Positions 5,391 to 34,056 of a stretch of 38,954 nucleotides of DNA are shown one piece after another. Each line of letters begins with the position of its first letter. Position 1 is the stretch's first letter. Location: the NCBI GenBank assembly GCA_964402885.1, contig CAYOFA010000001.1, positions 16,496 to 55,449 on the forward strand. The letters run 5' to 3'. The position numbers and the translations under genes are program-made. The notes beneath the pieces were generated by a model that worked only from the letters and a program-made list of their open reading frames with translations, was not told where the DNA came from and ran no database searches. This DNA comes from an uncultured Spirochaetaceae bacterium. GTDB lineage: Bacteria > Spirochaetota > Spirochaetia > DSM-27196 > PWMO01.

Positions 5391-5525
5391 TCCTGCGCTC
5401 CCCAGCCCCTCCCCACCGTCGCTCCCGCCTACCGCCCCCCCGGTTGCCGACTCGAGCACGTATTGGCCCGGTCGGTGAATCTGTGGTACACATGTAGCGA
5501 ACAGATCACCAGATGGGGGATTCTC

Positions 5526-6143
5526 GTGCAGATCGTGTGTCTTGACCTTGAGGGAGTGCTCGTGCCGGAGGTGTGGATCGCGGTAGCGGAGCGCTTCGAG
5601 GTTGCCGAGCTGCGACTCACCACCCGTGACGTGTCGGATTACGACGAGCTCATGGAACATCGTATCCGTACGCTCCGCAGCGAGGGCATCACCCTGACCG
5701 ACATACAGGAGACGATCGGCGGACTCGCGCCGCTCGAGGGAGCCAGGGAGTTTCTCGACACGCTGCGCGAGAACACACAGGTCATCATTCTCTCCGATAC
5801 CTTCGAGCAATTCGCCTCCCCGCTCATGAAGCAGCTCGGCCGACCGACGATCTTCTGCAACGAGCTGTTCGCCGACGACGAGGGCTATGTCAGCCATTAC
5901 CGCCTGAGGCAGGCCGACGGGAAACGCCGGGCGGTTCTTGCTCTTCACTCCATAGGATTCGATGTCACCGCCGTGGGTGACAGCTACAACGATCTCACCA
6001 TGATCCAGGCAGCCGACTTCGGCGCGCTGTTTCGCCCGCCGAAGTCCATCACCGAGGAGTACCCGACACTCCCGAGTTTCAAAGATTATGACGGTCTTCT
6101 GGGATTCCTCCTCGCCGACACTCGCGCAGACCGTACACTGTGA
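5526..6143 (+). CDS. thrH: phosphoserine phosphatase / homoserine phosphotransferase ThrH-like (HAD family)
   Basis: VQIVCLDLEGVLVPEVWIAVAE...TTRDVSDYDELM...VIILSDTF...AVGDSYNDLTM closely tracks Pseudomonas aeruginosa ThrH as I recall it (MEIACLDLEGVLVPEIWIAFAE...). The GTG at 5526 is preceded by GGGGA and gives 205 aa. Confidence 0.8.
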   Translation: MQIVCLDLEGVLVPEVWIAVAERFEVAELRLTTRDVSDYDELMEHRIRTLRSEGITLTDIQETIGGLAPLEGAREFLDTLRENTQVIILSDTFEQFASPLMKQLGRPTIFCNELFADDEGYVSHYRLRQADGKRRAVLALHSIGFDVTAVGDSYNDLTMIQAADFGALFRPPKSITEEYPTLPSFKDYDGLLGFLLADTRADRTL

Positions 6144-7006
6144 CAGTCCCCCCGGGATCAGTATCAGCTGATCTTCGACGGACCCGCGGCGACATCCTCG
6201 TGGTCGAAGATAACCGCATCAACAGCGTCGTCACCCGCCGGCTCGTCGCCCGCGCAGGGTTCGTCGCCGACGCCGCCTACAGCGGCACCGAAGCGATCGA
6301 CCGCCTTTCCGAGCACCCCTACCGCCTCGTCCTGATGGACCTCCAGCTCCCGGACATGACCGGGGTCGAGACCGCCCGTGCGATTCGGAAGGACGGCTCG
6401 CCGGTGAAGGACCGGAGCGTGCCCATCGTCGCAGTGACGGCGTACGCCGATGCCAAGGACCGGGATGCGTGCAGTGCGGTCGGAATCGATAGCGTGGTGG
6501 AGAAGCCGATAGACGACGCCACGCTCGGGGAGGTGCTGCGTCGATATGTCGCGCCCCCGGAGGCCGCACCGGAGGCCGCGACCCCGGCCGGCGCGGGCGG
6601 CCGCGGCGGCGGCCGTAGCCCCGCAGGCGGCGGCGGGACCGCCTTCGACCCCGCCGAGCTCGAAGCGCGCCTCGGCTCCGGGAAGCTCGCACGAACCGTC
6701 GTCTCGCGCTTCTTCGGCATCATCGACGAACGACACGCCGCAGTGAAAGCGGCCCTCGCCTCGGGCGACGCCGCGGCCATCCGGACGGCGGCACACAGCC
6801 TCGCCGGCCCCGCCGCAAACAGCGGCGCGCAGGCCCTGCATGCGCTGCTCAAGCGGATGGAAGCCGCGGCGGCGGCAGTTCCCGCAGCGGTGCCGGACGC
6901 GGAGACGGCCAAATCGGAGGCGGCTTCGGTTATACGCGAATGCGCCGAGCAGCTGGACACCGAGGTGGAGCGCGCCCGCGAGGCGCTCGAGGAATACGTG
7001 GGCTGA
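6140..7006 (+). CDS. response-regulator receiver domain fused to a C-terminal Hpt phosphotransfer domain
   Basis: REC domain: ILVVEDN...LVLMDLQLPDMTG...VAVTAYA...EKP. An Ala/Gly/Pro-rich linker follows. Hpt-like segment: AAHSLAGPAANSGAQALHALLKRME. The GTG start overlaps the thrH stop (GTGA). Confidence 0.8.
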   Translation: MTVPPGSVSADLRRTRGDILVVEDNRINSVVTRRLVARAGFVADAAYSGTEAIDRLSEHPYRLVLMDLQLPDMTGVETARAIRKDGSPVKDRSVPIVAVTAYADAKDRDACSAVGIDSVVEKPIDDATLGEVLRRYVAPPEAAPEAATPAGAGGRGGGRSPAGGGGTAFDPAELEARLGSGKLARTVVSRFFGIIDERHAAVKAALASGDAAAIRTAAHSLAGPAANSGAQALHALLKRMEAAAAAVPAAVPDAETAKSEAASVIRECAEQLDTEVERAREALEEYVG

Positions 7007-7098
7007 GCCTGTGGCCCGGCGACGCCCGCCGGTGCCGCCCGCCGGGGGCGCGAGGTGCACGGCGGGCGATGGCGGGTGCGCCCCAACGCCGCCGCCGC

Positions 7099-9150
7099 TC
7101 AGCCGGCGAGCGCCTCACTGAGGATGTGACGGGTGATGGCGTACAGCGGCGGGATGCCCTCGGTCGCCGCGAGCGGCGCGGAGAGTGTCGCCGTATGCTC
7201 GAGGGGCAGGTCCGAAACGTAGTAGAAGAGCCGCGATCGGATGTCGTGCGGAATGACACCGAGCTGGGCGGCCTCGACCACCTGCAGATAGTAGTGTATC
7301 CCCTCCATCTCGATGCCGAGGCATCCCCAGATGTGCCGATAGAAGCGCAGCATCCGACGGTTCTGCAGCAGAGTCCCGTCGACCGTGAGCAGGGGCCCCG
7401 TGTGTACCTGATGCCCGGGAATACGGGCTGCCAATCGCTCGCGGGCCGCCTCATCGGGGGCCGGGAGTGGCTGAAAGGTGTCGGTGGTCTGCCCCACGAA
7501 GGCGTCCGGCGCAAGCACATCACCACGCGCGCCGGTGAGCGCGCCGGCCTTCCCCAGGAAATTGATGCTCTCCAGATTGTGGCCGAAGAGCATCAGCAGG
7601 TTCTTTATGATGTGGCGCGCCTGCTCGCCGAAGGCATAGTCGATGTTTACGATGAGGTCCCGCGAACCGCGAGCGACCGAAATCCCCGGATCCACCGTGT
7701 GTTCATGCAGACGAGAGACATCGATCAGCTGCACCTGCACCCCGGTCGAGGCAGTCTCCTCGAGACGCAGCACACCGCATCCCTCCTCGGCGGCGCGGCT
7801 CGCCTCCGCCTCCTCCGGGAAGGCCGCGAAGTAGTCCCTCGCGAGCGCGTAGAGGCGGTCGTAGGGGTGCTCCCACTCGAGGTCCATATACGGATGGCCC
7901 GTGCGGCGGGCCCACTCGCAGACCTCATCCATATGTGCGGGGAACCACGGGTTGAGACAGTTGGTCACCGAATGGGTATTGCTGCTGATGATGTGGACGC
8001 GCACGTCCGCCGGAAGTGCCGAGGGCTGATACCCGATGAGCCGCTCAGTCGCGTTTCCCACCTGATCGGTCCACAGCTCGAGGCTGCGGCTGTTGTAGTT
8101 GTTACGCTGCCGCCGCACATCGATGCTGAACATCTCCCGATGACAGGCGATCTCGTAGAGGGTCTTCACGGTCCGTCCCGGCCACACCGATTCGAGCCCG
8201 TCGACCTCCGAGTCGGCGAAACCGAGGCGCTGCAGCAGCCCGCGTCGTGCCGAGGCGGAGTGGCTCTCGGGCTGCTCGAGGTAGTCGCGGATACGGGACA
8301 ATGCGTCCGGCGTCTTGACCCTGCTGCGGATCTTCCCCGCCTCCACGGCGTAGAGGCAGAGATTGGTGATGAGATCCATCAGATCGGAGAGGCCGTTCCT
8401 GAGAAGCACCATCACCTTGCCCGGGAGCATCTCCCAGACGTCGCGACGCCGCGCCGGTGTGCGAACCTCGGGGAAGAAGCGCCCCGGATTCCGGTAGGTT
8501 TCGGGTATCTCGTCGATGAGCAGGAAGGCGAAGGTGCGCGTCACGTTCTCCGGGAGTCGTCTGACGGCATAGCTCAGCCCGCCGAAGTCGATCTCGGTTT
8601 CCGAGCGGACCAGAGGATGCAGGGCCGGCTCGAGCTCGAGGTAGTAGGGAAGCAGGCGGTCCATGCTGACATAGCCCTGGTTGACCGCGCGGATGAGCTC
8701 CACCTTGAACCGGTCGAAGGCCTCGAAAATGCCGTGCTTGTCCCGAAGGATCGTGCCGAGGGCCTGGGCGAACGCCCGGGATTCCCCGAGCAGACCGAGA
8801 AACCGGTCGCCCGGCACGACGTAGCAGCAGGCCGGCTCCACCGCCCGCACGGAAGAGCGGCGCGGCTCCCTGAACAGCGATTCCCGCTCTCCGAAATAGT
8901 GCCCCGACTCGATGACGCCGACGCGGCCCGCGGAACCGTCGGCCTCGTCGCGGGTCTCCACCGTACCCTCGGCGAGGATGAAGACCGAATCGTCCTCCTC
9001 ATCCCCCTGCTCGACGATGAGCTCGCCCACCCTGTAATCGCGCTGCGTCACATGACGTGCGAGCTCGCGCTTCTCCGACTGGGTGAGAAACCGGAATGGG
9101 ATGACCCGCTCGAAGACCGTGATGGCGCGCTCGATGTCGAGTGTTGACAT
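7099..9150 (-). CDS. cyclic-nucleotide-binding domain protein with C-terminal AMP-nucleosidase/PNP_UDP_1-like domain
   Basis: N-terminal cNMP-binding cassette: GHYFGERESLFREPRRSSVRAVEP. The C-terminal 200 aa align by eye to the E. coli Amn catalytic domain. The matching segments are IVNIDYAFGEQARH, FLGKAGALTGARGDVLAPDAFV, TGPLLTVDGTLLQNR, GIEMEG and YVSDLPLEH. Confidence 0.75.
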   Translation of the reverse strand: MSTLDIERAITVFERVIPFRFLTQSEKRELARHVTQRDYRVGELIVEQGDEEDDSVFILAEGTVETRDEADGSAGRVGVIESGHYFGERESLFREPRRSSVRAVEPACCYVVPGDRFLGLLGESRAFAQALGTILRDKHGIFEAFDRFKVELIRAVNQGYVSMDRLLPYYLELEPALHPLVRSETEIDFGGLSYAVRRLPENVTRTFAFLLIDEIPETYRNPGRFFPEVRTPARRRDVWEMLPGKVMVLLRNGLSDLMDLITNLCLYAVEAGKIRSRVKTPDALSRIRDYLEQPESHSASARRGLLQRLGFADSEVDGLESVWPGRTVKTLYEIACHREMFSIDVRRQRNNYNSRSLELWTDQVGNATERLIGYQPSALPADVRVHIISSNTHSVTNCLNPWFPAHMDEVCEWARRTGHPYMDLEWEHPYDRLYALARDYFAAFPEEAEASRAAEEGCGVLRLEETASTGVQVQLIDVSRLHEHTVDPGISVARGSRDLIVNIDYAFGEQARHIIKNLLMLFGHNLESINFLGKAGALTGARGDVLAPDAFVGQTTDTFQPLPAPDEAARERLAARIPGHQVHTGPLLTVDGTLLQNRRMLRFYRHIWGCLGIEMEGIHYYLQVVEAAQLGVIPHDIRSRLFYYVSDLPLEHTATLSAPLAATEGIPPLYAITRHILSEALAG

Positions 9151-9159
9151 GCGTCCAAC

Positions 9160-10104
9160 TTACAATGGAATCCGGTACTGTGACACCATCGTCCGCAGCT
9201 TTTCGAGCGCGCCCTCGTAGCTCTCATTGCGGGTGTAGGCGATCACGTTATCCTCGATACGACCGCGGCCGGTCTCGAACGTTGCGATGGGGTTGTCGAG
9301 CAGGCCCCGGATCTGCGCCTCACTGATTCCGTGGTCAAGCAGGAACGCGGCGAAGGAGAGCTCGCGCATCGGAACGCGCTCCGCCCGCTGACTGTAGAGG
9401 TAGCCGAGGCCGTCGAGGATCTGCTCGACCGGACTCTTGGAATAGTGGAACACGCGGCTCACCGAGCCCTGCGTACCGAGCATGCCGCGTTCTATGAAGC
9501 CCTGTCGCATCTTCGAAGTGAGTGACAGAAAGTCCTCGTAGCCCATGCGTGTGCGAAAGAGCATGACGGCGATGTCGGTGTTGCGGTTGTTCTTGTGGAT
9601 CAGGGCGGGGATGTCGTAGTTCACCACGAAGAAGGCGCCGACCCGCTTCACCGTTTGTCCGTCCACGACGAGAATATCGGGCTCATCGACCCACTGCGAG
9701 AAGAGCTCCTCGGCCCGCACATCGAGCCGGTCGAGGGCTTCGAAGGCGCCGATCACCGGAGCAGTCTCGAACTCGGTGCCGAAGTGCTCGCGGAAGCGAG
9801 CCTTCATGCGCTCGGTGAACAGGCGCTTGCCGTGTACCGCGAAGCTCATCTTGACCGCATAGTGCCGCTCTACGATGTGATTGCTCGCGATGAACTCACC
9901 CGGTATGTTCGCAAGATAGGCGAGGTGCAGATCGACCTTGTACTGGGGGCATTCCTCGACGACTTTCAGGACTTCCCGTTCCCCGACGACACCGTTGGTC
10001 TCGGGGCGCATGTATACGAAGATGTCCTGAATGCCCGCGTCCGTCCGGGGGCCCGGATAGGGCACGAGTACCTGAGGCATGGCGGCACCGGCGTGGGAAT
10101 CCAT
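9160..10104 (-). CDS. conserved hypothetical protein, weak nucleoside-diphosphate-kinase-like motifs
   Basis: The ATG at 10104 is preceded by GGAGAGGGAGGG 8 nt upstream. The longer listed ORF (to 10365) would overlap pheT. Motifs seen are FVYMRPETNGV, ERHYAV and RVFHYSKSP. The stop lies 9 nt before the next gene. Confidence 0.6.
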   Translation of the reverse strand: MDSHAGAAMPQVLVPYPGPRTDAGIQDIFVYMRPETNGVVGEREVLKVVEECPQYKVDLHLAYLANIPGEFIASNHIVERHYAVKMSFAVHGKRLFTERMKARFREHFGTEFETAPVIGAFEALDRLDVRAEELFSQWVDEPDILVVDGQTVKRVGAFFVVNYDIPALIHKNNRNTDIAVMLFRTRMGYEDFLSLTSKMRQGFIERGMLGTQGSVSRVFHYSKSPVEQILDGLGYLYSQRAERVPMRELSFAAFLLDHGISEAQIRGLLDNPIATFETGRGRIEDNVIAYTRNESYEGALEKLRTMVSQYRIPL

Positions 10105-10180
10105 GGCGTGCACCCTCCCTCTCCGGTCGCGTCCGCCGGCGCCGGCTATTCGACCGCCGGCGGCATCTGTCGAGACCCTG

Positions 10181-11893
10181 TCAGCGAAGCGCGTCCATAT
10201 CGATCTCCGCCGCCGCACAGGGCACCTGTATCCCCCAGCTCTCGAGGACGCGCGGGTGGATCTCGCCGAAGATGCCGACCTGCACACCGTCGACCGTGAT
10301 CGCAGCCGTACGACCGGGGATGAACCGGGGGTCATCGAGCTCCTCGAGCCCGTGCTCGTACCCAAGATAATAGAAAAGCGAGGTGACGTGGGAGTTCATC
10401 AGGTTGAAATCCGCGTCGGACTCGGCGGCGAGAAAGCCGAGTGCGTTCACGCTGCGCGAGCCGTAGTTCTCCGAGGCGTCCTGACGCACGATCTTCCCGG
10501 CCTCGAAAATGAGGTGCGGGTAGCTCGCATTCGCCGACACGCTCTCAGCGGACAGGAGATGAGGGATGATGGAGTGGCGGACGTACTCGTAGTTCTCAGA
10601 CAGCGGATTGCTGACCTTCACGAACTCCCGGGCGATTGCCTCGCGCTCCTCTTCGGGATACATCCACTCGATGAACTCGCGGTGGGAGCCGAGGTAGTTG
10701 AAGATCATCTCCTGGTAACCGAGACCGACCATGATGTTCTTTGCCCGTCGGGAGAAGATCTCCGCCTCGCTGAGGCGTCCCACGGTGTACTCCGAGGGCA
10801 TCGCGGGCTCGAACGAGTCCATGCCGAGGCCGATCATGATGTCCTCGATGACGTCCACCGGATGAAGGAAGTCGTTGCGGTACACCGGCGGATAGGCGGT
10901 CACCGAATCCCCGTCGGCTTCGGCCTCAACACCCATGCGGCCCAGGCTCTCGACCACCTGATCGGCGGTGAGCGAAACGCCGAGCATCTTCTCCGCGTCG
11001 GCCACCTGCACCGTGTGCGGCTTCTGGAAGTAGTACGGCGTGACGATCTCCCGGCCGTAGGGCGTGTCGTAGGGATAGACGACGCGGATCGGCAGCACCC
11101 GGTAGCCGTGATCAGCCAGGTCGCAGGCGATGATGTTCCCGGTCAGAAGCAGCTGTTCCATGTCGAGACCGGTCATCTCCACGAAGAGCTGCCAGTCGCC
11201 CTGCTGCACCCCGCCGATGTAGGCGCTGTTGATGATGGGCGGGAAGCCCACTATCTCGCCGCGGTCGTCCTTGAGCAGGGGCATCTTCGGGAAGCCCTCG
11301 ACCAGGGAGGCGAACTCCTGTCCCTTGGGATGCTCGGTGAGAATCTGGCGCAGCGTCATCGTCCGGTCGGTGCCCAGCGGCTGAAACTGCGTGGTCTCGG
11401 GATCCGCAGCCACGTAGTGGATGGGATACTTCACAAGTGCCGAGCGATACACACCGATGGCAACGGACTTTCGCTTGCGCCCGTAGTTCCAGGCAAGCTT
11501 TTCCTGAGTCTGAATGAGATCGAGGAGGCCCGGCTCGTCGATGTGCTTGCCGGCGACCGCGAAGGCCACCAGGTAGGGCCGTGTATGCTCGAGCTCCGGA
11601 TCCACCATGAAGCGGCGTTCCTGGGGATCCTTCATGTCTCCGTCGCGGGAGATGAAGTCGTAGGTCGGCATCTCGCCCCGCCGATAGATACGGAGCTGAC
11701 GCGCAAGTCCCGCCGCGGACCAGAGGTCGGGCCGGTTGGTGTCGTTCAGCTCGAACTTGGCGATACCGCGCTCGTCGGCTTCGGCATCGAGCTCCGCCTT
11801 GGCGGCGGTCAGCAGTTGCTCGAGGGTCTCGGTCTCCAGCCGGGTACCGAGGTAGTCAAAAAACGCCTGCTCGTAGACGTCGATCTTAGGCAT
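10181..11893 (-). CDS. pheT: phenylalanine--tRNA ligase beta subunit, archaeal/eukaryote-like short form
   Basis: At 570 aa it is shorter than the roughly 800-aa bacterial form. The N-terminus MPKIDVYEQAFFDYLG and B3_4/B5-like core are present. The gene starts 3 nt after the pheS stop. Confidence 0.9.
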   Translation of the reverse strand: MPKIDVYEQAFFDYLGTRLETETLEQLLTAAKAELDAEADERGIAKFELNDTNRPDLWSAAGLARQLRIYRRGEMPTYDFISRDGDMKDPQERRFMVDPELEHTRPYLVAFAVAGKHIDEPGLLDLIQTQEKLAWNYGRKRKSVAIGVYRSALVKYPIHYVAADPETTQFQPLGTDRTMTLRQILTEHPKGQEFASLVEGFPKMPLLKDDRGEIVGFPPIINSAYIGGVQQGDWQLFVEMTGLDMEQLLLTGNIIACDLADHGYRVLPIRVVYPYDTPYGREIVTPYYFQKPHTVQVADAEKMLGVSLTADQVVESLGRMGVEAEADGDSVTAYPPVYRNDFLHPVDVIEDIMIGLGMDSFEPAMPSEYTVGRLSEAEIFSRRAKNIMVGLGYQEMIFNYLGSHREFIEWMYPEEEREAIAREFVKVSNPLSENYEYVRHSIIPHLLSAESVSANASYPHLIFEAGKIVRQDASENYGSRSVNALGFLAAESDADFNLMNSHVTSLFYYLGYEHGLEELDDPRFIPGRTAAITVDGVQVGIFGEIHPRVLESWGIQVPCAAAEIDMDALR

Positions 11894-11896
11894 GCT

Positions 11897-13447
11897 TCAG
11901 CTCCTTCGCCTCAGTCGCACACGTTCTATGTCGTTGGAGAAGAGCTCACGGAGGTCGTCGAGCCCCAGATGCATGAGCGCCATCCGGTCAATGCCGAGCC
12001 CCCACGCAAGAACCGGGACATCCACGCCGAGCGGCTTCGTCACCTCGGGCCGGAAGATACCCGACCCGCCGAGCTCGAACCACCCCAGAACCGGGTGCTT
12101 GATGTGCACCTCGACCGACGGCTCGGTGAACGGGAAATAGCCCGGCACGTACTTCACTTCCTGGGCGCCGGCCACCTCCACTGCGAACATCTTGAGGAAG
12201 CCAAGAAGCGTGCGCAGATTCACCTCATGTCCCAGCACGATTCCCTCGGTCTGATAGAAGTCGGAAAGATGCGTAGCGTCGATCTGATCATTGCGAAAGC
12301 AGCGCACCACACCGAAGTACTTCCCCGGAACCTTTGCCGTGGGCAGCTGCTTGGCTGAGAGCACCGTACCCTGGCTGCGCAGGATCAGGCGCCGGGTGAA
12401 ATCGCGGTCGAAGGGATAGCGCCAGCCGAGGCTTCCCGTCTCCCAGCCGTCCTCGTGCGTCCGGGCAACCTGGCTGAGATAGGGCTCGGCGATTTCTTTG
12501 GCGTGATCCGGATGATCGACATAGTACACATCGTGAATATCGCGTGCGGCGTGGAACTGAGGCATGAACAGCGCATCGGAGTTCCAGAACTCCGTCTCCA
12601 CGAGGGGCCCGTCGAACTCCTCGAATCCGAGAGAGGTAAGCTTGTCCTTCACCCGCTCGAGATACTCGCCGTAGGGATTCCGACGGCCGGGCAGCACCCG
12701 CGCCGCGGGGATGTTGATGTTGTAGGGGCGGAAGTTGCGGTGTCGCCAGGCGCCGGTGCGAAGCATCTCGGGCGTGAGCGCGCCCACTTCCTCGCCGGTC
12801 ACGCCCGCCGCATCCAGGGCCTTCTTCGCCTCGGTGCCGGCCTTCGTGAAACGAAAGTGGACCGTTTCGTGCTCCGCAGCCCGGAAAATCGTGCTCGCCG
12901 CTCCCCGCTTCTTGCTGACGGTCTGAATGGCCGCACGCTCTGAATCGCTGAGATCGGCATCGACCAGGCTGCCTTCCGAGCGTGCGCGATCGATGAGCGC
13001 TCGCACCGTCGAGACCGACTCCGGCATCTGCGCGCCGTTCTCGAGCTGAACACGCTTCTCCTCATCCATGGAGAGCACGCCCGCCTTCGACAGAGCGCCG
13101 TAGGCCGAACCCGTTTCCTTGTTTTCGAGAGAGAGTCGCGAGGTAATGTCCGGCATCCGCATCGGTCCCTGCTCACGAATTACCGATACGATGCGCTCCT
13201 CGGGCATACCGTCGGTTGCATAGCGCTCACCGAGCTCGGTAAGCTCGTAGCGCACCGACTGCTCGCGTCGCGTCTCCTCGATGAGCTCCTTTGCCGAGAG
13301 CCAGCTCAGGGCCTGATTCGCCTGTCCGGTGTTCAGGCCGAGAGCCTCCACGAGGCGCTCCGCGTCGAACTCATCCTTCGGGCCGAGATGGAGCAGGACG
13401 CGTACTTCGAGCGGATGGAGGTTCTTTGCGATGTCTGCGCGATCCAT
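11897..13447 (-). CDS. pheS: phenylalanine--tRNA ligase alpha subunit, archaeal/eukaryote-like long form
   Basis: At 516 aa it has N-terminal winged-helix repeats. Class II core: FMPQFHAARD, RSQGT, FRNDQIDATHLSDFYQTEG, GLGIDR. The ATG at 13447 has GAGGAG 7 nt upstream. Confidence 0.9.
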   Translation of the reverse strand: MDRADIAKNLHPLEVRVLLHLGPKDEFDAERLVEALGLNTGQANQALSWLSAKELIEETRREQSVRYELTELGERYATDGMPEERIVSVIREQGPMRMPDITSRLSLENKETGSAYGALSKAGVLSMDEEKRVQLENGAQMPESVSTVRALIDRARSEGSLVDADLSDSERAAIQTVSKKRGAASTIFRAAEHETVHFRFTKAGTEAKKALDAAGVTGEEVGALTPEMLRTGAWRHRNFRPYNINIPAARVLPGRRNPYGEYLERVKDKLTSLGFEEFDGPLVETEFWNSDALFMPQFHAARDIHDVYYVDHPDHAKEIAEPYLSQVARTHEDGWETGSLGWRYPFDRDFTRRLILRSQGTVLSAKQLPTAKVPGKYFGVVRCFRNDQIDATHLSDFYQTEGIVLGHEVNLRTLLGFLKMFAVEVAGAQEVKYVPGYFPFTEPSVEVHIKHPVLGWFELGGSGIFRPEVTKPLGVDVPVLAWGLGIDRMALMHLGLDDLRELFSNDIERVRLRRRS

Positions 13448-13540
13448 AGCGGGGCTCCTCAATGTGGTGTTCCATTGGTACCGGAAACCCGCTGCTTTGT
13501 AAAGTGAAGGGTCATGCGTGAGGGTCGGTGTGATGGCTAC

Positions 13541-13613
13541 TGGAGGATAGGGGAGTCGAACCCCTGACCTATTGATTGCGAACCAATCGCTCTACCACCT
13601 GAGCTAATCCCCC
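13541..13613 (-). tRNA. tRNA-Ala (anticodon CGC)
   Basis: Hand-folded cloverleaf: GGGGGAT-TA-GCTC-AGGTGGTA-GAGC-G-ATTGG-TTCGCAA-TCAAT-AGGTC-AGGGG-TTCGACT-CCCCT-ATCCTCC-A. The G3:U70 alanine identity pair is present. CCA is not encoded. Confidence 0.9.
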
Positions 13614-13625
13614 AACTGGGCACAC

Positions 13626-13655
13626 AATATACACGGTTGCCTCCGCTTGATGCAA
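13626..13655 (-). promoter_or_regulatory. sigma-70-like promoter upstream of tRNA-Ala (and possibly pheST)
   Basis: On the minus strand the sequence reads TTGCAT-18 nt-TATATT, ending 12 nt before the mature tRNA 5' end. Confidence 0.5.
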
Positions 13656-13708
13656 GAGGTTAATTTCTACCGACGGCACCGCCGGCGGCGGCGCCGCGGA
13701 CCGCAACC

Positions 13709-14062
13709 ATGAAGACGATTGCCCAGATCCCAGGCCCCCACACCCGCTTCTTTCCCGATCACGCCGACCGCAGACGCCGGGTCTTCGTCACTATCAGTTT
13801 CTTCCCCGGAACGGGCAGCCACTTTCACGTCGAAATCCGCGAGGAACACAACTACGTCTTCGATGCGGAGTCGCAGGAGTGGATCGAGCCGGGGAACGAC
13901 TCCGCCGGCGAGGGACGACATCGCTTCATGAAGTTCAACCGGGAGGAGACCGCGCGACGCTGGGTGGAGGATGTCTTCGCGGAGGAGTTCTCCGAGGAGA
14001 CGCACGAGCTCGTCTTCCGCGGGGACGTGTCGAATCGCTGGTATTATCCCGAAGGTGATTGA
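13709..14062 (+). CDS. hypothetical protein (117 aa)
   Basis: An ORF with coding-like composition in a gap between confidently called genes. I recognised no motif and saw no clear SD. Confidence 0.45.
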   Translation: MKTIAQIPGPHTRFFPDHADRRRRVFVTISFFPGTGSHFHVEIREEHNYVFDAESQEWIEPGNDSAGEGRHRFMKFNREETARRWVEDVFAEEFSEETHELVFRGDVSNRWYYPEGD

Positions 14063-14074
14063 TGCGGGCGAACG

Positions 14075-14446
14075 ATGAACCGTGATACACTTTCGCGCGT
14101 GAAGCACATCATTCTCACCGCCCTTGCACTTACGCTTCTTCTTGCCGGATGCGCCACCGATCCCGACCGCCCCGTTGAGCCGCCGGCGGAGCCGGATACC
14201 GGGTTTCCACTGGTACGACCGGCAACCGACGCGCCCAAGGAGCTGCCGGCGCCCTCGGTGAAGCTCGTCGACCTGAGAAGGCTTCGCGTCGGCATGACGA
14301 TGGCGGAGGTACTCGAAATATTTCCCGGCCCCGTCGAGACGAAGATATCGCCGCGGGACACCACGGTGTGGCAGTACCGCTTCGCCGAGCTCTACTTCCG
14401 CGACGGCCGGCTGTTCAACTGGTTCAACCTCGAAGAGGAGTACTGA
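14075..14446 (+). CDS. small lipoprotein, BamE/SmpA-OmlA-like
   Basis: Signal peptide with lipobox LLAGC. The C-terminal segment VGMTMAEVLEIFPGP...WQYRF...YFRDGRL resembles the SmpA_OmlA fold pattern. Confidence 0.6.
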   Translation: MNRDTLSRVKHIILTALALTLLLAGCATDPDRPVEPPAEPDTGFPLVRPATDAPKELPAPSVKLVDLRRLRVGMTMAEVLEIFPGPVETKISPRDTTVWQYRFAELYFRDGRLFNWFNLEEEY

Positions 14447-14454
14447 TGCCGGGC

Positions 14455-17139
14455 CTACCGCAGCGCCTTCATCAGAAACTCGAGCCGCGTTTTCAGGGCG
14501 TCGGCAATCTTGTGGTTCGGATGGTAGCCAGAGAGTGATTGTATATAGCCGAAGGTGTCGCGCAGGCGCTTGGGTGTGACCCGCAGGGGCTCGCCCCCCT
14601 CTTCGGCCTCCCGACCCATGCCGTAACGCTCGATGTCGGCCCGGAGTCCCGGCCGTCCCGTCAGCCGCGCCTTGATGGTCTCGATACGCAGTCGAATGTC
14701 ACTCTCGAGGAAAGCTCGGTTCTGCTGTTCCGGCAGGTCGCCGGCGAGCTGCACGAGATAGTCGAACATCGCTGCCCGGCGCTGCCACTCGTCCTCGGGC
14801 TCCTCACCGGGCTCGCCGGGCTCACCGGGCTCCTCGCGCTCGCCGGGGTCCTCGCCGCCTTCTTCGGCGGCAGCCACTTCCCCGGGCAGCTCCTCTTCGG
14901 GCACCGGTGCCTCCTCCGGCGGGGGTGCCGCTTCCTCCTCCGCGGGCAGATCCTCGTCCGAGGGCGGCGTCTGCGGGGCGAGCCCTTCGGGCGGCTGTAC
15001 GCCGTCCGGCGGGGCGTGAAACACGAAGGTCGGTGCGGGCCACGACGGCGCAGCGCCCTCCCCCGACTGCCGGTCCGATTCCTGCCGGGCCGGTTCGGGC
15101 GGGGCCGGCGGCTGCTGCCCGGACTGCTGATGTATGTGATACGTCTGCGACGGCGGCGGATACTGAGGCGGCGGATATTGCGGCGGCGGGTACTGCGGAT
15201 ACTGCGGCGGCAGCTGCGCCGGGTACGGCGGCGGGGGCGGAGGCTGGCGGTACTGGGGCTCAGCCTCGTTGTGCCAGGGTGAGGCGCCGGGATGCTCGGG
15301 GGGCGGATAGCTCGGCGGCCCGGAGGCAGCCAGTTGCCGCTGCGGCGGGGACTCACGCCGCTCGCCCTCGGCCATCCTCAACAGCGACGGATAGTGCTGG
15401 TGGGCAGAAAGCGCCTCCCAGTCCGGCTCTTCGGGCGGCTCCTCTTCTTCCTCGGCGTCCTGCTCGAAGTGCTCTGCGGTGAAGTCGAGAATCGGAATCG
15501 AGTCCTCCTCCAGGCCGGCGAGCTCATCGATCTCCATCTCGGCTTTCACCTCTTTGGCCTCGCCCTCCTCGGCTTCCCGGGCGAGGTCGCCCAACTTCTC
15601 GAGGTTTCGTTGCCAGGCTTCGTTGTGGTCCGTCTGATAGGTGCTGACGATGTCCTCGTAAATCGCGAGGCTCTCATTGATCGCCGAGAGGTCCTCCGGG
15701 TTGGCGCGGTTGCCCTGCAGGCTTATGAGGTCCTCGGCCGAGTGTAACGCCTGTTCGCGCTCGCCCTGCTCACGATAGGCCCTGGCGAGGTGAGAAAGCA
15801 CCGCGCCGTGCTCGGGATACTCGGCCCGCAGTTTCTGCAGGAGGCGCACGGCTGCATCGACTTTGCCCCGAGCAATAAGGATGTCGGCGCGCAGGAGATG
15901 CCCTTCGGGATCGCCCGGAACCCGTTCGAGGTAGCCTTTGAGCTCATGTGCGGCCTCCTCGTAGCGCCCCTCGGATACGAAGAACCGTGCAAGGTCGAGA
16001 CGATGACTGTGGTGCCCCGGTTCCGCGGCCTCCAGCCGTTGGAAGCAGTCTTTGGCCTCCTCCTCACGCGCGGTACGGAAATACACCAGCCCGAGGAGGT
16101 GCAGCGCGCTCGGCTCGTCATGCTCGAGTCGGAGAACAGTCTGGAGCTCCTCCTCGGCCTCCCACAGGCGGTCGCGAGCGGCAAGGCTCTCCGCACGGGC
16201 CCGCCTGAAGTCGACGCGGTCGGGAAACGCCGAAACCACCTCGCCGAGAATCTCCGGTACGTCATCGCGGTCGTCGCGGCCCGCGAGCACGCGGACTATA
16301 TTGCCGGCCGCGTGCTCGTATCGGGGATTCAGGCGAAGCGCCTCGCGAAGATGGTCGACGGCGGCATCGAGCTCCCCTCGCTGCATCTGTATCGTGGCAG
16401 CGTTGTTGTGAGCGATTGCGTTCTCAGGGTCGATGCGGAGGATCTCCTGGTAGGAGCGCAGCGACTCCTCGAGTCGACCGAGGCGGTCGAGGACCACGCC
16501 GCGGTTTATCAGCGCATCGACCCACCCGGGACGGCTCCGCAATGCGCGGCCGAAGGATTCCGCGGCCGCCTCGAGATCACCCTCCCGCTCCTGGGCCAGA
16601 CCGATGTTGTAGTGCAGCCCGGGGTGATTCGGATCGTGGTACAGCCCCCGCTGGAAGACATCGCGGGCCTTCGTGTGGTCGCCCTGGGCCGCGAGCAGAT
16701 TTCCGAGATTGTTGTATGCCGGCAGGAATGCAGGATCGAGCTCGATTGCCTTCTCGTAGGCGGCGGCGGCCTCGTCGATATCACCTGCAACCTTGTAGAC
16801 GTTGGCGAGGTTGTAGCGCAGGTCGGCCCGGTCGGGGTTCAGGTTGATTGCCGAGCGAATGGCCTTCAGGGCGTCCCCGAACCGACCGAGCCGGCGGTAC
16901 ATGATCCCCAGGTTGTTGAACGCCTCCGCGTTCTGCCGGTCCTGCTCGATGGCGGCCGAAAACTCCCGCGCCGCCGCACCGATTTCGCCCTGCTGCGCGA
17001 GCACGGAGCCGAGGAGGATATGAGCCTGCGGTCGGGAGCCGTCGGACTCGAGCAGCTGCTCGAGAAGCTCCCGCGCTACGGAGTAGTCGCCGATGCGATA
17101 TGCGTTTCGGGCTCGATGTAAGGCACTGTCGGACTGCAC
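14455..17139 (-). CDS. TPR-repeat protein with acidic and proline-rich central region (894 aa)
   Basis: About 480 aa of consecutive TPR units come first (for example AEAFNNLGIMYRRLGRFGDALKAIRSAINLNP). These are followed by Glu-rich tracts, a PPQYP-type proline-rich tract, and a roughly 120-aa C-terminal domain. The GTG start lies 3 nt after the upstream stop. Confidence 0.85.
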   Translation of the reverse strand: MQSDSALHRARNAYRIGDYSVARELLEQLLESDGSRPQAHILLGSVLAQQGEIGAAAREFSAAIEQDRQNAEAFNNLGIMYRRLGRFGDALKAIRSAINLNPDRADLRYNLANVYKVAGDIDEAAAAYEKAIELDPAFLPAYNNLGNLLAAQGDHTKARDVFQRGLYHDPNHPGLHYNIGLAQEREGDLEAAAESFGRALRSRPGWVDALINRGVVLDRLGRLEESLRSYQEILRIDPENAIAHNNAATIQMQRGELDAAVDHLREALRLNPRYEHAAGNIVRVLAGRDDRDDVPEILGEVVSAFPDRVDFRRARAESLAARDRLWEAEEELQTVLRLEHDEPSALHLLGLVYFRTAREEEAKDCFQRLEAAEPGHHSHRLDLARFFVSEGRYEEAAHELKGYLERVPGDPEGHLLRADILIARGKVDAAVRLLQKLRAEYPEHGAVLSHLARAYREQGEREQALHSAEDLISLQGNRANPEDLSAINESLAIYEDIVSTYQTDHNEAWQRNLEKLGDLAREAEEGEAKEVKAEMEIDELAGLEEDSIPILDFTAEHFEQDAEEEEEPPEEPDWEALSAHQHYPSLLRMAEGERRESPPQRQLAASGPPSYPPPEHPGASPWHNEAEPQYRQPPPPPPYPAQLPPQYPQYPPPQYPPPQYPPPSQTYHIHQQSGQQPPAPPEPARQESDRQSGEGAAPSWPAPTFVFHAPPDGVQPPEGLAPQTPPSDEDLPAEEEAAPPPEEAPVPEEELPGEVAAAEEGGEDPGEREEPGEPGEPGEEPEDEWQRRAAMFDYLVQLAGDLPEQQNRAFLESDIRLRIETIKARLTGRPGLRADIERYGMGREAEEGGEPLRVTPKRLRDTFGYIQSLSGYHPNHKIADALKTRLEFLMKALR
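15151..15216 (-). repeat. imperfect 15-bp tandem repeats encoding PPQYP units
   Basis: Plus-strand units are cggcggcggatactg / aggcggcggatattg / cggcggcgggtactg / cggatactg / cggcggcagctg. These lie inside the TPR gene and encode QLPPQYPQYPPPQYPPPQYPPP. Confidence 0.7.
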
Positions 17140-23520: not shown

Positions 23521-25282
23521 TGGAACCGCCCTGCGGAATGTCGATGAAAAACGTCGTGCCCAGTCCGGGCTCGGTCTCGAACCAGATCTGCCCGCCGTGG
23601 TCGAACACGATACGCTCGACGATGGCAAGTCCCAGGCCCGTTCCGTCGGGCTTGGTCGTGAAGTACGGGTTGAAGACCTTCCCATGGTCCGCTGCGTCGA
23701 TTCCGGGGCCGGAGTCCCGTACCTGTACTCGAGCGTAGTAGCTATTGCCGCGCTTGACAAGGTCGGCGCGAACCCGGATCTCCCCGCCGCCGTCCATGGC
23801 TTCGACCGCGTTGGAGAACAGGTTGGAGAATACCTGTCGTATCTGCTCCCGGTCGGCCTGCACGATGAACTCCGCATCTATGTCATCGAGGTGTATCTCC
23901 GTGGCCGCATGCTCCACGTAGGTCGTCGCCGCCTCCTCGACCAGCTCGCGCAGAGGAACCTGCTCGAGGTCGGGCTCCGGCAGCCGCGTGAAGTTCCGGA
24001 ACTCGGTCAGCAGGTGATTGAGCCCCTCGACCTCGCGAATGATGGAGCGCACCGAGGCGTCGAAGACCTCGTCGAAGTCGGGCGCGCCGTTGCGGTGCTT
24101 GCGCAGCATCCGCTCCGCACTGAGCTGAATGGGCGTGAGGGGGTTCTTGATTTCGTGGGCGAGCCGCTGGGCGATCTCCTGCCACGCGGCCACTTTCTCC
24201 GTCTGAATGAGTTTGGATCGCGACCGCTCGAGCTCGGCAACCATCTGATTGAAGCTGCGCGAGAGCACGCTGAGGTCATCGCGGGTGCGACTGAGGACCC
24301 GAAACGAGTAGTCGCCCTCGGCAACCCGCGCTATCGCCTGTTCGAGGTTCTCGATCGGCCGCATGATCTCATCGGAGAGATAGAAGGCCGCGAGGATGGC
24401 CAGCAACAGCAGCGGCAGCGCAAAGAACACGTAGATCCCCGCGTATGCGAGACGAAACTCCGTCTGGAAGAGCTCGAGCTGCGTGTAGCTCTCGAGCGCC
24501 TCGGTGAGGCTGCGAGCGGTTTCGTCGAAGCCCGGCGGCAGGGACATCGCGAGGACGAGGGCGTAGCGTTCACCTTCCACCGTGACGCTGCGGCGCACAC
24601 GCAGAAACGACGCCCGGGCGGTGGACTCGCGCGCAACGAAGCCCTCCCCCGCCGCCTCCGCCTGCCCGGAGCTGAGCCTGATCGACTCATCACCGGCGGC
24701 GTAGAGCTCCTCGAACTGCGGACTGAAGACCTGAAACCCGTCGATCGTCGGGTAGACGCGCCGAATGCGTTCCCACGTCGTAGCGGGATCCTCGACCACG
24801 CCGGCCGTGAACTCGTCGAACTCCTCCCCCCGGACGAACTCGCGCAGCCCCTCCACCCGCTCGTCGTAGAATTGAAGCGCCACATCGAGCCCGCCGCGCA
24901 GGGCGCGCTCGGTACCCGTATCGAAGAGAGCCCGCATGCTGGCGTTGATCACGTTGACCGAGAGGAGCGCCTGCGGTACCGAGGCGAGAACGATGACCAC
25001 CATGAAGAAGAGGATGAGGCGCAACTTGAACCGGGTGCCCGGTCGGCCGCGGAAACGCTCCCGCAGTACCCGCACCACATTCGCCGCGATCATCGCAAGC
25101 AGAAAGAGGGGGACGAAGGCCGCAAGTGCGAACAGGAGCCGACGCGAGGTGGAGCCCGCGAAGGAGACCTCGAGCAGGACCTGGCGGGAAAACAGCAGCA
25201 CGAGGCCCATGAGCAGGAGGTAAAGCAGCGCGACGCCGATGAGGGTGCTGCGGCTCGCCGTTGCCCGTGCGTGTCGTTTCAT
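23495..25282 (-). CDS. sensor histidine kinase, NtrY-like (multi-TM, HAMP, HisKA, HATPase_c)
   Basis: N-terminal TM helices, a fourth TM followed by HAMP (IMRPIENLEQAIARVAEGDY), the H box AHEIKNPLTPI, the N box NLFSNAVEA, and G boxes RDSGPGI/GTGLGLAIV. Confidence 0.88.
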   Translation of the reverse strand: MKRHARATASRSTLIGVALLYLLLMGLVLLFSRQVLLEVSFAGSTSRRLLFALAAFVPLFLLAMIAANVVRVLRERFRGRPGTRFKLRLILFFMVVIVLASVPQALLSVNVINASMRALFDTGTERALRGGLDVALQFYDERVEGLREFVRGEEFDEFTAGVVEDPATTWERIRRVYPTIDGFQVFSPQFEELYAAGDESIRLSSGQAEAAGEGFVARESTARASFLRVRRSVTVEGERYALVLAMSLPPGFDETARSLTEALESYTQLELFQTEFRLAYAGIYVFFALPLLLLAILAAFYLSDEIMRPIENLEQAIARVAEGDYSFRVLSRTRDDLSVLSRSFNQMVAELERSRSKLIQTEKVAAWQEIAQRLAHEIKNPLTPIQLSAERMLRKHRNGAPDFDEVFDASVRSIIREVEGLNHLLTEFRNFTRLPEPDLEQVPLRELVEEAATTYVEHAATEIHLDDIDAEFIVQADREQIRQVFSNLFSNAVEAMDGGGEIRVRADLVKRGNSYYARVQVRDSGPGIDAADHGKVFNPYFTTKPDGTGLGLAIVERIVFDHGGQIWFETEPGLGTTFFIDIPQGGSNEHDTGSG

Positions 25283-25947
25283 CGCGCGGCCTCCGGATCG
25301 CGTATGCGAACCCAGGCACTCCGAAGGGTGTAGCGCGGCGTCGCAAGCGCGATGATGCGAAGCCGCTCGACAAGGCGCAGCGGGCGCAGGCGGGCCTGCG
25401 CGAGCACGTAGCGGCCGGGGCTCTCGGGGGCGACGCTTCCGGTTCCCGTACCCGACGTGGCCCGTCGGGCCTCCGACGGCACGGACACCTCGCGCAGGGT
25501 CAGGAGCTCGGTCACCGCATCGTCGATCCGGGAGAAGACACGTGTGTCGGGACCGCCGCCGCCCGACCCTGCGCCGGCAACGCCGTCGCCGGGCCGGCGC
25601 GTGCTCAGCCGATAGCCGTCGGCGAAGGGATCGATGCGCGCCTCGGTCGCGATGCGATGCTCGGCAACCAGGCGATCTCCGAGAAGCCCGGCGATCCCTT
25701 CGACCGGCTCGAACACGCGCAGAATCAGGTCGAGCTCGGCACGAAGCCCGGACTCCAGGGTCGCGGCGATGCGATCAGTCGGGGCTCTGGTTACCCGTAT
25801 ACTCAGGGTATTCGGTGCGGTGTGCCGCGCCTCGATTCCGAGATCCTCGGCTGCGGCCGGCGTGGCGGGGAGGATAAGGATGATAACAAGAAGGGCTGCG
25901 AGCTTACTCTTCCTCGAAGCGATTTTCGAACAGGCTCGCCAGGGCAT
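25279..25947 (-). CDS. secreted hypothetical protein, possibly DUF4390-like
   Basis: Hydrophobic signal-like segment KLAALLVIILILPATPAAA. The stop overlaps the kinase start (ATGA). The only in-frame ATG (25947) lies 44 nt inside ptsH, so the start is uncertain. The position upstream of an NtrY/NtrX-like pair matches DUF4390 synteny as I recall it. Confidence 0.45.
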   Translation of the reverse strand: MPWRACSKIASRKSKLAALLVIILILPATPAAAEDLGIEARHTAPNTLSIRVTRAPTDRIAATLESGLRAELDLILRVFEPVEGIAGLLGDRLVAEHRIATEARIDPFADGYRLSTRRPGDGVAGAGSGGGGPDTRVFSRIDDAVTELLTLREVSVPSEARRATSGTGTGSVAPESPGRYVLAQARLRPLRLVERLRIIALATPRYTLRSAWVRIRDPEAAR

Positions 25948-26170
25948 CGACAGCTTCCTCCTCGTCGGGCCCGTCGGCGACGATCTTGAGCACGCTGTTG
26001 TAACCGGCTCCCAGCGTGATGATCCCCATGATGGACTTTGCGCTGATCTCCTCGGATTCCTTCTTGAAATAGATGTCCGAATCGTACTGCCCCGCGGTCT
26101 GCACGATGAGTGCCGCGGGGCGCGCGTGGATGCCTGCTCTGTTCTTGATGGTAATCTCACGCTCGGTCAT
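25904..26170 (-). CDS. ptsH: phosphocarrier protein HPr
   Basis: At 88 aa, with His15 in RAGIHARPA and Ser46 in EISAKSIMGI. The gene starts 4 nt after the hprK stop. Confidence 0.9.
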   Translation of the reverse strand: MTEREITIKNRAGIHARPAALIVQTAGQYDSDIYFKKESEEISAKSIMGIITLGAGYNSVLKIVADGPDEEEAVDALASLFENRFEEE

Positions 26171-34051: not shown

Positions 34052-34056
34052 CCGAT

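Follow-up and report, generated by a model that had tools for sequence, protein, structure and literature searches.

The stretch of DNA analysed here (the window) comprises 38,954 nucleotides of contig CAYOFA010000001.1 (positions 16,496 to 55,449 of the forward strand, assembly GCA_964402885.1) from an uncultured Spirochaetaceae bacterium, and the gene under study lies at 7099..9150 on its minus strand, with 683 codons plus a stop. The gene is predicted to encode a cyclic-nucleotide-binding (CNB) sensor, a middle region and a putative catalytic domain of the NP-I fold, the part behind the sensor being matched by the Pfam family DUF6909 (PF21850). Its codon-position GC content (0.68/0.43/0.84 for GC1/2/3) is that of a coding-type frame, and its homologues are equal in length to the 683-residue protein. 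A 735-residue open reading frame (ORF) on the opposite strand (6940..9147, plus) is a shadow ORF of the high-GC DNA and not a gene, and neighbouring ORFs were ranked by GC3 in order to avoid such opposite-strand shadows. A first-pass annotation, made by a model from the sequence of this stretch, had described a CNB domain fused to an AMP-nucleosidase-type catalytic domain. Its ORF coordinates were exact, and the seven peptides that it quoted were all found in the translation of 7099..9150: FGERESLFREPRRSSVRAVEP at residue 86, VNIDYAFGEQARH at 501, GKAGAL at 533, GDVLAPDAFV at 543, TGPLLTVDG at 584, GIEMEG at 612 and YVSDLPLEH at 644.

The Pfam match to DUF6909 covers residues 165-679 and is near full-length (profile positions 3-532 of 535; E 8.4e-129, 430.8 bits for a cut-off of 27), and judged by this profile the 683-residue protein is a full-length member of the family. 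Pfam catalogues DUF6909 without a function, a fold or literature; a fold assignment, an active-site map and a distribution are added here. The annotation had stated that no characterised protein with this architecture was known, and this agrees with the literature searched, in which neither DUF6909 nor a CNB-nucleosidase fusion was mentioned; however, the architecture itself was already catalogued, both as DUF6909 and under the NCBI names of its relatives ('DUF6909 family protein' or 'cyclic nucleotide-binding domain-containing protein').

The CNB/CAP-type domain is located at 8737..9108 (minus strand; residues 15-138 approximately, the C-terminal helices that connect it to DUF6909 included). 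Pfam cNMP_binding (PF00027; cNMP, cyclic nucleoside monophosphate) matches residues 37-122 (E 1.6e-16, 60.5 bits, gathering score 27.5). A phmmer search against PDB sequences has returned CNB matches only, those of PKG and PKA-R (E 3.6e-17 to about 1e-11). An AF2 model of the full protein was built on 44 homologues (pLDDT 89.3, pTM 0.87), and Foldseek superposed it on isolated CNB domains of PKG, PKA-R and the PycTIR sensor (8jsk) with TM-scores of 0.75-0.87. The phosphate-binding cassette FGERESLFREPRRSSVRA (8842..8895, minus strand; residues 86-103, including G87, E88 and R97) is complete in this protein and reads F86-G87-E88…P96-R97…A103. In PKA and CAP, the cassette Glu contacts the ribose 2'-OH and the Arg contacts the cyclic phosphate. 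All of 44 close homologues retain G87 and E88; R97 and A103 are conserved in at least 90% of them. The canonical CAP/cNMP-binding cassette that had been read by eye near the N-terminus is therefore backed by the Pfam match, the intact residues and the structural matches, and the protein appears from its sequence to have what a cNMP-binding CNB domain requires.

The putative catalytic domain of the NP-I fold (PNP/MTAN/Amn-like) is encoded at 7102..7998 (minus strand; residues 385-683). Nested in the DUF6909 match, Pfam PNP_UDP_1 (PF01048) was found at residues 524-618 (E 1.3e-6, 28.5 bits, gathering score 25.1), and the same match is precomputed for several homologues. Foldseek searches of the AF2 model against the PDB have retrieved the Amn of Salmonella and of E. 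coli, the MTAN of E. coli and of V. cholerae, PNP and uridine phosphorylase (UP) with probability 1.0 and E-values from about 2e-8 to 1e-7. TM(target) was 0.56-0.69 for the single-domain MTAN, PNP and UP, while the Amn chains, which have two domains, gave 0.34-0.38; identities were 11-14%. In a viral structure library, giant-virus nucleoside phosphorylases also matched the NP-I domain; CNB and PNP proteins were present in this library only separately, and the fusion was never found. Since the targets have about 235 residues and the Foldseek alignments extended over about 320 columns, the NP-I domain was placed from the strand at 385-390 (VHIISSN), with an insertion of 66 residues. This helical insertion (7780..7977, minus strand; residues 392-457) lies between strand 1 and a beta hairpin, and in the AF2 model its helices span residues 392-399, 402-417, 420-423, 429-443 and 445-457; the order of strands and helices after it matches the MTAN/PNP topology. 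The HMMER/Pfam and Foldseek searches that the first-pass annotation had proposed thus recovered a PNP/Amn fold, with PNP_UDP_1 above its gathering score. Its by-eye alignment of the last 200 residues with E. coli Amn was right in the motif blocks, and not in their extent, because the NP-I fold begins at about residue 385 and the insertion had been overlooked; this alignment is carried by fold and motif evidence and not by strong sequence statistics. On the predicted structure, the C-terminal 300 residues or so are best described as a highly divergent NP-I-fold domain.

The motifs of this domain were compared with those of known enzymes by hhalign, using a 192-sequence DUF6909 profile against an Amn alignment and against MTAN. 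The E. coli MTAN and Amn query sequences were 100% identical to the PDB chains, and the Amn target profile was shallow, the homologues listed being all more than 80% identical. The comparisons with single MTAN and single Amn sequences were insignificant. The best local alignment with Amn (P 0.011, single comparison) pairs GIEMEG…YYVSDLPL with AIDMES…CVSDKPL, and in a greedier mode all five blocks proposed in the first-pass annotation fall in register with E. coli Amn, while the equivalent motifs line up with MTAN. In this register, NIDYAFG (7627..7647, minus strand; residues 502-508) corresponds to Amn NIGVGPS (VNIGVGPS with the preceding residue) and is not aligned with MTAN; GKAGAL is paired with Amn GHCGGL and MTAN GSAGGL, its GKAG core (7543..7554, minus strand; residues 533-536) being the equivalent of MTAN GSAG, PNP GSCG and Amn GHCG; and LTVDGTLLQN is paired with the TGTVVTTDD region of Amn and with LIVSGDAFIN of MTAN. 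Further on, EMEG (7300..7311, minus strand; residues 614-617) is aligned with Amn DMES and MTAN VEMEA, so that E616 pairs with MTAN E174 and Amn E405, and S646-D647 (7210..7215, minus strand) pairs with S196-D197 of MTAN and with S427-D428 in VSDKPL of Amn, followed by P649 as in Amn SDKPL. In MTAN and PNP, this Glu binds a ribose hydroxyl, and this Asp serves as general acid and protonates the purine as it leaves. The equivalent Asp of Cap17, D472, is essential for activity (preprint 10.1101/2023.01.24.525353). The alignment of the catalytic positions has been accepted because the Pfam match, the fold and the register against two enzymes independently agree.

The Lys of GKAG (K534) is unique to the DUF6909 family and is aligned with S76 of MTAN and with the His of Amn GHCG, the matching position in PNP being S90. 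The strand-1 motif VHIISSNTHS (7969..7998, minus strand; H386, S389, N391, H393 and S394) would stand at the place of the PNP phosphate loop and of the MTAN catalytic-base loop; this placement comes from topology, the loop reading SSNTHS where MTAN has GAMEEE in an alignment that carries no statistical support.

Conservation was determined in 193 full-length members (111 representatives at 50% identity, 81 genome loci and the window). The residues of the putative active site are near-invariant: D504 is conserved in 181, G508 in 191, Q510 in 188, K534 in 191, D544 in 185, Q596 in 191, E614 in 189, M615 in 190, E616 in 191, S646 in 186, D647 in 189 and P649 in 192 of these proteins, whereas the strand-1 motif shows lower values (H386, 133; S389, 170; N391, 168; H393, 159; S394, 155). 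All 55 Bacteroidota proteins that have no CNB domain retain the active-site residues. The ribose-binding Glu and the general-acid Asp, which the first-pass annotation had considered retained, are aligned by hhalign as E616 and D647 and are each present in at least 97% of the set, and from this alignment both residues appear to be under strong purifying selection across phyla. These data bear on the possibility that the protein is a pseudoenzyme, in which the NP-I-like domain would be a non-catalytic ligand-binding module or scaffold and the protein a cNMP receptor that signals through protein-protein interactions. Pseudoenzymes normally lose their catalytic residues, while the Glu of EME and the Asp of SD are kept across Spirochaetota, Bacteroidota, Myxococcota and others, and a single divergent member without EME (with GVDLIAAT in its sequence) indicates that loss is tolerated rarely. 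The sequence divergence from active enzymes is, however, extreme, no nucleophile-activating residue was found, and NP-like folds with non-enzymatic roles do exist, the plant vegetative storage proteins being an example (PMC3751785). An active enzyme is preferred to a pseudoenzyme because the putative active site is near-invariant, also in the Bacteroidota proteins without CNB, and we give the non-catalytic alternative only a slim chance.

Among the known NP-I enzymes, AMP nucleosidase (Amn, EC 3.2.2.4; E. coli 1T8R/1T8S, Salmonella 2GUW) resembles the protein in having a regulatory N-terminal part and an NP-I catalytic domain, in the five motif blocks that are in register and in the Foldseek E-value of 1.8e-8, and the protein would likewise be an allosterically controlled N-glycosidase. 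However, genuine Amn proteins carry AMNp_N (PF10423) together with PF01048, and AMNp_N was not detected in the 683-residue protein at E <=1. An NCBIfam scan at the same threshold returned only CNB-type matches, the HpnG model (E 0.17) and a spurious reverse gyrase, with no Amn or MTAN model. Identity with Amn is about 13%, Lys replaces the His in the G-x-x-G motif, and Amn lacks the 66-residue insertion. Amn is regulated by MgATP and Pi, whereas the regulator of this protein would be a cNMP acting through the CNB domain. The label of AMP-nucleosidase type was consequently not sustained, since AMNp_N and an Amn NCBIfam match are both absent and, in structure, MTAN, PNP and UP are at least as close as Amn is. 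By analogy, the protein plausibly works like Amn, with a regulatory module that controls an NP-I nucleosidase, and is not its orthologue.

MTAN (Pfs/MtnN; E. coli 1NC3/1JYS) gives the best superposition (TM(target) 0.69) and has the same order of secondary structures, with E172-M173-E174 and S196-D197 at the positions of E614-M615-E616 and S646-D647. It differs in being a single domain of 232 residues, in its GAMEEE loop, which has no alignable counterpart, in S76, replaced by Lys, and in the lack of an NCBIfam match. A protein of this kind could be an MTAN-like hydrolase of a non-phosphorylated adenosyl metabolite (MTA, SAH, 5'-deoxyadenosine or a futalosine- or adenosylhopane-type compound) under cNMP control, in which case it would not be a nucleotide nucleosidase. 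Such a substrate would suit the best TM(target) values, which are those of MTANs (0.69 for E. coli 1nc3, 0.62 for V. cholerae), the fit of LTV.GTLLQN and EMEG to MTAN LIVSGDAFIN and VEMEA, and HpnG, an MTAN-family enzyme and the sole non-CNB hint in NCBIfam. It is less compatible with the failure of every MTAN NCBIfam model to match, with an SDxPL sequence closer to Amn than to MTAN, with the invariant Lys in place of S76 and with the invariant Arg clusters of the middle region, which suit an anionic ligand. None of these points is decisive, and an MTAN-like hydrolase is regarded as a serious but rather unlikely alternative. Taken together, the invariant Lys of GKAG and the Arg-rich middle region make us lean towards an anionic ligand, either a phosphorylated substrate or a phosphate co-substrate.

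The middle region of DUF6909 (7999..8733, minus strand; residues 140-384, about 245 residues) makes up about a third of the 683-residue protein and was absent from the description in the first-pass annotation. This conserved alpha/beta region has many invariant Arg, Asp and Glu residues, and its conserved positions include the motifs RRLP and ARRRD and the residues R251, D256, D259, E270, K273, R275 and H337. When it was modelled alone by AF2 (pLDDT 82.6), Foldseek found no significant fold match in the PDB (best E 0.35, TM not above 0.25). Its identity with the N-terminal domain of Amn was ruled out, since neither a PF10423 match nor a significant fold match was obtained. The top matches of this search, none of them significant, were nearly all uridine phosphorylases or a short Amn (E 0.35-1.5), and they reflect either chance or the trace of a degenerate second NP-I-like half-domain. 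The region is considered a candidate new domain.

The close homologues with the same CNB + DUF6909 architecture number 413 and include proteins from Spirochaeta africana, S. lutea, Salinispira pacifica and Alkalispirochaeta, in agreement with the origin of the window in a high-GC spirochaete. In the top 120 matches listed, the source names are spirochaetal with one exception; the closest homologue is 92% identical, and the closest named one ('Spirochaetota bacterium') 79%. With the DUF6909 part alone, an exhaustive phmmer search has recovered 511 representatives at 50% identity. CNB-DUF6909 is the dominant architecture, CNB being present in 34 of the 45 longest members, and the others are REC-CNB-DUF6909, GAF-CNB-DUF6909, NADAR-CNB-DUF6909-DFP, CNB-DUF6909-DFP and stand-alone DUF6909. 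The fusions with DFP (CoaB-like) are rare and were seen in P0284 (1157 residues, with NADAR) and P0280 (979 residues). NADAR domains act on N-glycosidic linkages of the ADP-ribose type, and the NADAR fusion hints at NAD- or ADP-ribose-related substrates of DUF6909.

When GTDB species were scanned with one genome each, a relative was found in at least 594 of them, with a lineage-consistent spread. The forms fused to CNB occur mostly in Spirochaetota; Polyangiaceae, Myxococcota, Gemmatimonadota and proteobacterial metagenome-assembled genomes (MAGs) have them as well, and stand-alone DUF6909 proteins of about 560 residues are found throughout Flavobacteriaceae, Saprospiraceae and Cyclobacterium. 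Because Bacteroidota have the enzyme without CNB, and REC or GAF domains are added ahead of it in other lineages, the CNB domain is seen as an optional regulatory add-on; judged by the modular sensor fusions and the stand-alone forms, DUF6909 behaves like an output enzyme of signal-transduction proteins, able to work by itself and brought under the control of sensor domains in several lineages. The family was absent from 50,697 phage records, and a search of 72,556 plasmids gave two matches only, both in non-mobilisable megareplicons of Persicobacter.

The window is ordinary chromosome. Around the CNB-DUF6909 gene it carries genes for a glycine-betaine ABC transporter, a MarR protein, a HAD hydrolase, a response-regulator receiver fused to Hpt, a protein of 314 residues with no Pfam match, and pheT and pheS of archaeal type. 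Other genes in the window code for TPR and LamG/fn3 proteins, UvrC, HolA, LexA and an NtrC-type two-component pair, and hprK, rpoN, lptB/A/C, pyrG, cheR, ymdB and hsp20 are also present. Two further ORFs of about 300 residues each (25279..26160 and 34006..34950, both on the minus strand) have coding-like GC3 and no Pfam match. The first-pass annotation had placed the gene downstream of pheST, and this has turned out to be a recurrent order in spirochaetes: pheS, pheT, the 314-residue gene, in some cases a DUF1707 gene, the CNB-DUF6909 gene, in some cases histidine kinase or response regulator genes, and the HAD gene. In the window, pheS (521 residues) and pheT (570 residues; domains B1, B5 and PF17759, the catalytic-like (CLM) domain of the beta chain) lie at 10181..13462 (minus strand). 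Both belong to the archaeal/eukaryotic type, as expected in spirochaetes and in line with the taxonomic assignment. Only 9 nt separate the stop codon of the upstream gene from the ATG of the CNB-DUF6909 gene, and scans around 7099..9150 gave no promoter-like or terminator-like site; owing to this spacing and to the lack of such sites, co-transcription with pheS, pheT and the 314-residue gene is probable.

The gene for the 314-residue protein (9160..10107, minus strand) is located between pheT and the CNB-DUF6909 gene. The protein has 519 homologues, nearly all spirochaetal, with about 45 invariant residues (for example in RPETNG, NYDIPAL and FHYSK), and its profile found no match in the PDB. 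A by-eye impression of NDK-like identity gained no support from the Pfam or PDB profile searches. As a functional partner this gene was rejected, because it has no homology to the 332-residue gene beside DUF6909 in Bacteroidota and because it follows pheST in S. thermophila at a locus without DUF6909: the block at that locus consists of pheS, pheT, the unknown gene, ParA and HAD. The existence of this block without DUF6909 indicates that the spirochaete neighbours reflect ancestral synteny and not a functional module. On the other side, the receiver-Hpt fusion (6140..7006, plus strand) converges on the 3' end of the gene with a gap of 93 nt; this downstream slot holds histidine-kinase or response-regulator genes in the spirochaete loci L002, L003, L014 and L017. 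The HAD hydrolase (5463..6143, plus strand; about 200 residues) is conserved near the gene across spirochaete loci and is also present at the S. thermophila locus; it presumably resembles a ThrH-type phosphoserine phosphatase.

In Flavobacteriaceae, the stand-alone DUF6909 gene belongs to a same-strand cluster with genes for an M23 peptidase, a GH3-like adenylating enzyme, a protein of 332 residues with no Pfam match, and rmlB, rmlA, rmlC and rmlD. At loci with enough flanking sequence, the M23 gene was present in 43 of 51, the GH3-like gene in 42 of 52 and the 332-residue gene in 40 of 51. The 314-residue spirochaete gene is not homologous to the 332-residue gene. The cluster was observed at 7526..15968 of a Maribacter locus (L060) and at 40 or more other Bacteroidota loci (L029-L083); the GH3-like gene ends about 40 nt upstream of DUF6909 and the 332-residue gene starts about 9 nt downstream, and the arrangement suggests an operon. 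The copies fused to CNB outside the spirochaetes have unrelated neighbours. A cyclic-nucleotide-gated ion-channel homologue (Ion_trans + cNMP_binding; 8536..9885, minus strand) was found once only as the divergent neighbour, in a Gemmatimonadota MAG (L020), and this locus may be a small cNMP-effector locus.

Sensor-fused nucleosidases are known from phage defence, and the protein was compared with them. PNP domains act as ATP-nucleosidase effectors in CBASS and Detocs (preprint 10.1101/2023.01.24.525353), and no CNB-nucleosidase architecture is among those listed in that study. As in Cap17 (CBASS) and DtcC (Detocs), a signal-sensing domain is fused to a domain from the family PNP_UDP_1 that in those effectors cleaves the N-glycosidic bond of adenine nucleotides, and the REC-CNB-DUF6909 variant follows the output-domain logic of DtcC. 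However, the sensor here is CNB and not the PF18178 oligonucleotide sensor or REC alone, the context is core genome, and neither a CD-NTase nor a kinase (DtcA) with a buffer protein (DtcB) accompanies the gene. The Pycsar effectors PycTIR and PycTM also combine an N-terminal CNB receiver of cNMP with a C-terminal effector (PycTIR CNB 8jsk, TM 0.75); they differ in their adjacent pyrimidine or purine cyclase (PycC), which is missing here, and in an output of TIR or transmembrane helices where this protein has the NP-I fold and the novel region. The chromosomal synteny of the present gene, in addition, is conserved over whole families.

From these likenesses, an abortive-infection effector can be conceived in which the cNMP of a phage-triggered cyclase, as in Pycsar, would activate a Cap17/DtcC-like ATP nucleosidase and deplete ATP. 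The CNB sensors of Pycsar, the PNP effectors of CBASS and Detocs, and the PycTIR matches by Foldseek and by PADLOC speak for it, but the PADLOC match is weak (E 3.7e-4) and concerns the CNB part alone, the enzyme part having no match to PADLOC models. No nucleotide cyclase (Guanylate_cyc or other) and no defence gene was found in the 39-kb window, the absence of a cyclase being as the first-pass annotation had stated, nor in the immediate flanks of three non-spirochaete loci (L016, L020 and L023). The core-genome synteny is conserved in two phyla, the orthologues without CNB are kept beside rml genes in Flavobacteriaceae, the distribution over so many species is lineage-consistent, and copies are absent from phages and from mobilisable plasmids. 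The immune role has been rejected on genomic context, on the absence from phages and mobilisable plasmids and on PADLOC, and it is considered very improbable. A physiological role had been called at least as likely as an immune one, and the evidence (context, no phage copies, no PADLOC effector match) clearly favours it. The survey of homologues that had been proposed for this question gave housekeeping neighbourhoods in spirochaetes and in Flavobacteriaceae, and the single cyclase among the related loci scanned was that of S. lutea, about 6 kb from the gene. As a whole, this widespread family has the look of a housekeeping signalling system and not of phage defence.

The explanation that is favoured, and to which we assign somewhat better than even chances, is a chromosomal and vertically inherited signalling enzyme with a CNB sensor and a DUF6909 output of the NP-I nucleosidase type, which would have a physiological role and not one in abortive-infection immunity. 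In this protein, the CNB domain is joined via its C-terminal helices to the DUF6909 module; binding of cAMP or cGMP to CNB would move these linker helices and switch the nucleosidase activity, and the C-terminal domain would act on a purine nucleoside or nucleotide, most likely one of adenine, and cut its N-glycosidic bond, with a role in the control of nucleotide or metabolite pools or in signalling. Both purine-base cleavage and gating by cNMP are what we infer for the 683-residue protein from its sequence. The adenine-nucleotide substrate, and hydrolysis rather than phosphorolysis, as proposed in the first-pass annotation, are putative. Of its claim that the fusion couples a cyclic nucleotide signal to adenine-nucleotide cleavage, the two-module architecture has been borne out by Pfam and Foldseek and the AMP-nucleosidase label has not. 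In favour of the signalling enzyme, cAMP signalling is used by spirochaetes (PMC9043183 and PMC8186283).

Several observations weigh against the signalling enzyme. At the sequence level, the NP-I assignment is thin and leans on the predicted structure: the PNP_UDP_1 match is partial (profile positions 68-177 of 233) and barely over its threshold, a profile of the C-terminal domain, when run on the PDB sequences, gave only noise and no PNP-family chain, and the hhalign P-values are just 0.011 for Amn and 0.051 for MTAN. Neither hhalign nor topology gave a counterpart of the water-activating Glu of MTAN or of the phosphate-binding Arg of PNP. No gene neighbour that would indicate a pathway is common to different phyla. 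Finally, the cassette Glu or Arg is replaced in about one third of the diverse relatives bearing CNB (in 97 such members, Gly is kept in 93, Glu in 66, Arg in 61 and Ala in 76), and from these sequences a cNMP ligand may not be shared by the whole family, some distant relatives possibly binding something else.

This last observation also supports an enzyme as described whose CNB domain would not sense cAMP or cGMP and would take up a different small molecule, perhaps the nucleotide that is the substrate or product of the enzyme, or would serve for dimerisation only. Haem in CooA and 2-oxoglutarate in NtcA are ligands of other bacterial CNB folds, and no cyclase is linked to the gene; on the other hand, the full FGE…PR…A cassette is intact in this protein and conserved in its close relatives, and the best sequence matches are the genuine cNMP-binding domains of PKG and PKA. 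A sensor of this other kind is judged improbable, though marginally less so than a pseudoenzyme. A more far-reaching form of the signalling enzyme may be put forward tentatively, as a possibility clearly less probable than the general explanation: DUF6909 would be an ancient NP-I branch, not recognised before, that serves as an output domain in signal transduction. In spirochaetes, cAMP or cGMP would directly switch on its cleavage of AMP, ATP or another adenine nucleotide such as an ADP-ribose/NAD-type compound, so that the immune ATP nucleosidases would have a counterpart in housekeeping, and a new domain, allosteric or binding nucleotide phosphates, would be present in the conserved Arg-rich middle region.

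CNB-DUF6909 is not a new kind of system; it is an uncharacterised variant of the theme of sensor-fused or allosteric NP-I nucleosidases. What is new here is a divergent NP-I variant, widely distributed and with a middle region that is novel, in a family that was already catalogued as a DUF and in some members of which InterPro-type scans had flagged a weak PNP_UDP_1 match. A large family, syntenic in the sampled Flavobacteriaceae, thereby gains a putative active site (E616, D647 and K534). To our knowledge, the ligand-gated nucleosidases of the PNP superfamily currently known come in two forms, AMP nucleosidase with its regulation by ATP and Pi, and Cap17 and DtcC as effectors of phage defence, and few cAMP or cGMP effectors are known to us in spirochaetes. 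If the protein is indeed a housekeeping cNMP-gated nucleosidase, the cleavage of bases from nucleotides would also be a routine output of bacterial second messengers, the cAMP/cGMP signalling of spirochaetes would have a concrete enzymatic target, and a second messenger would have a new way to reset the adenylate or energy pool.

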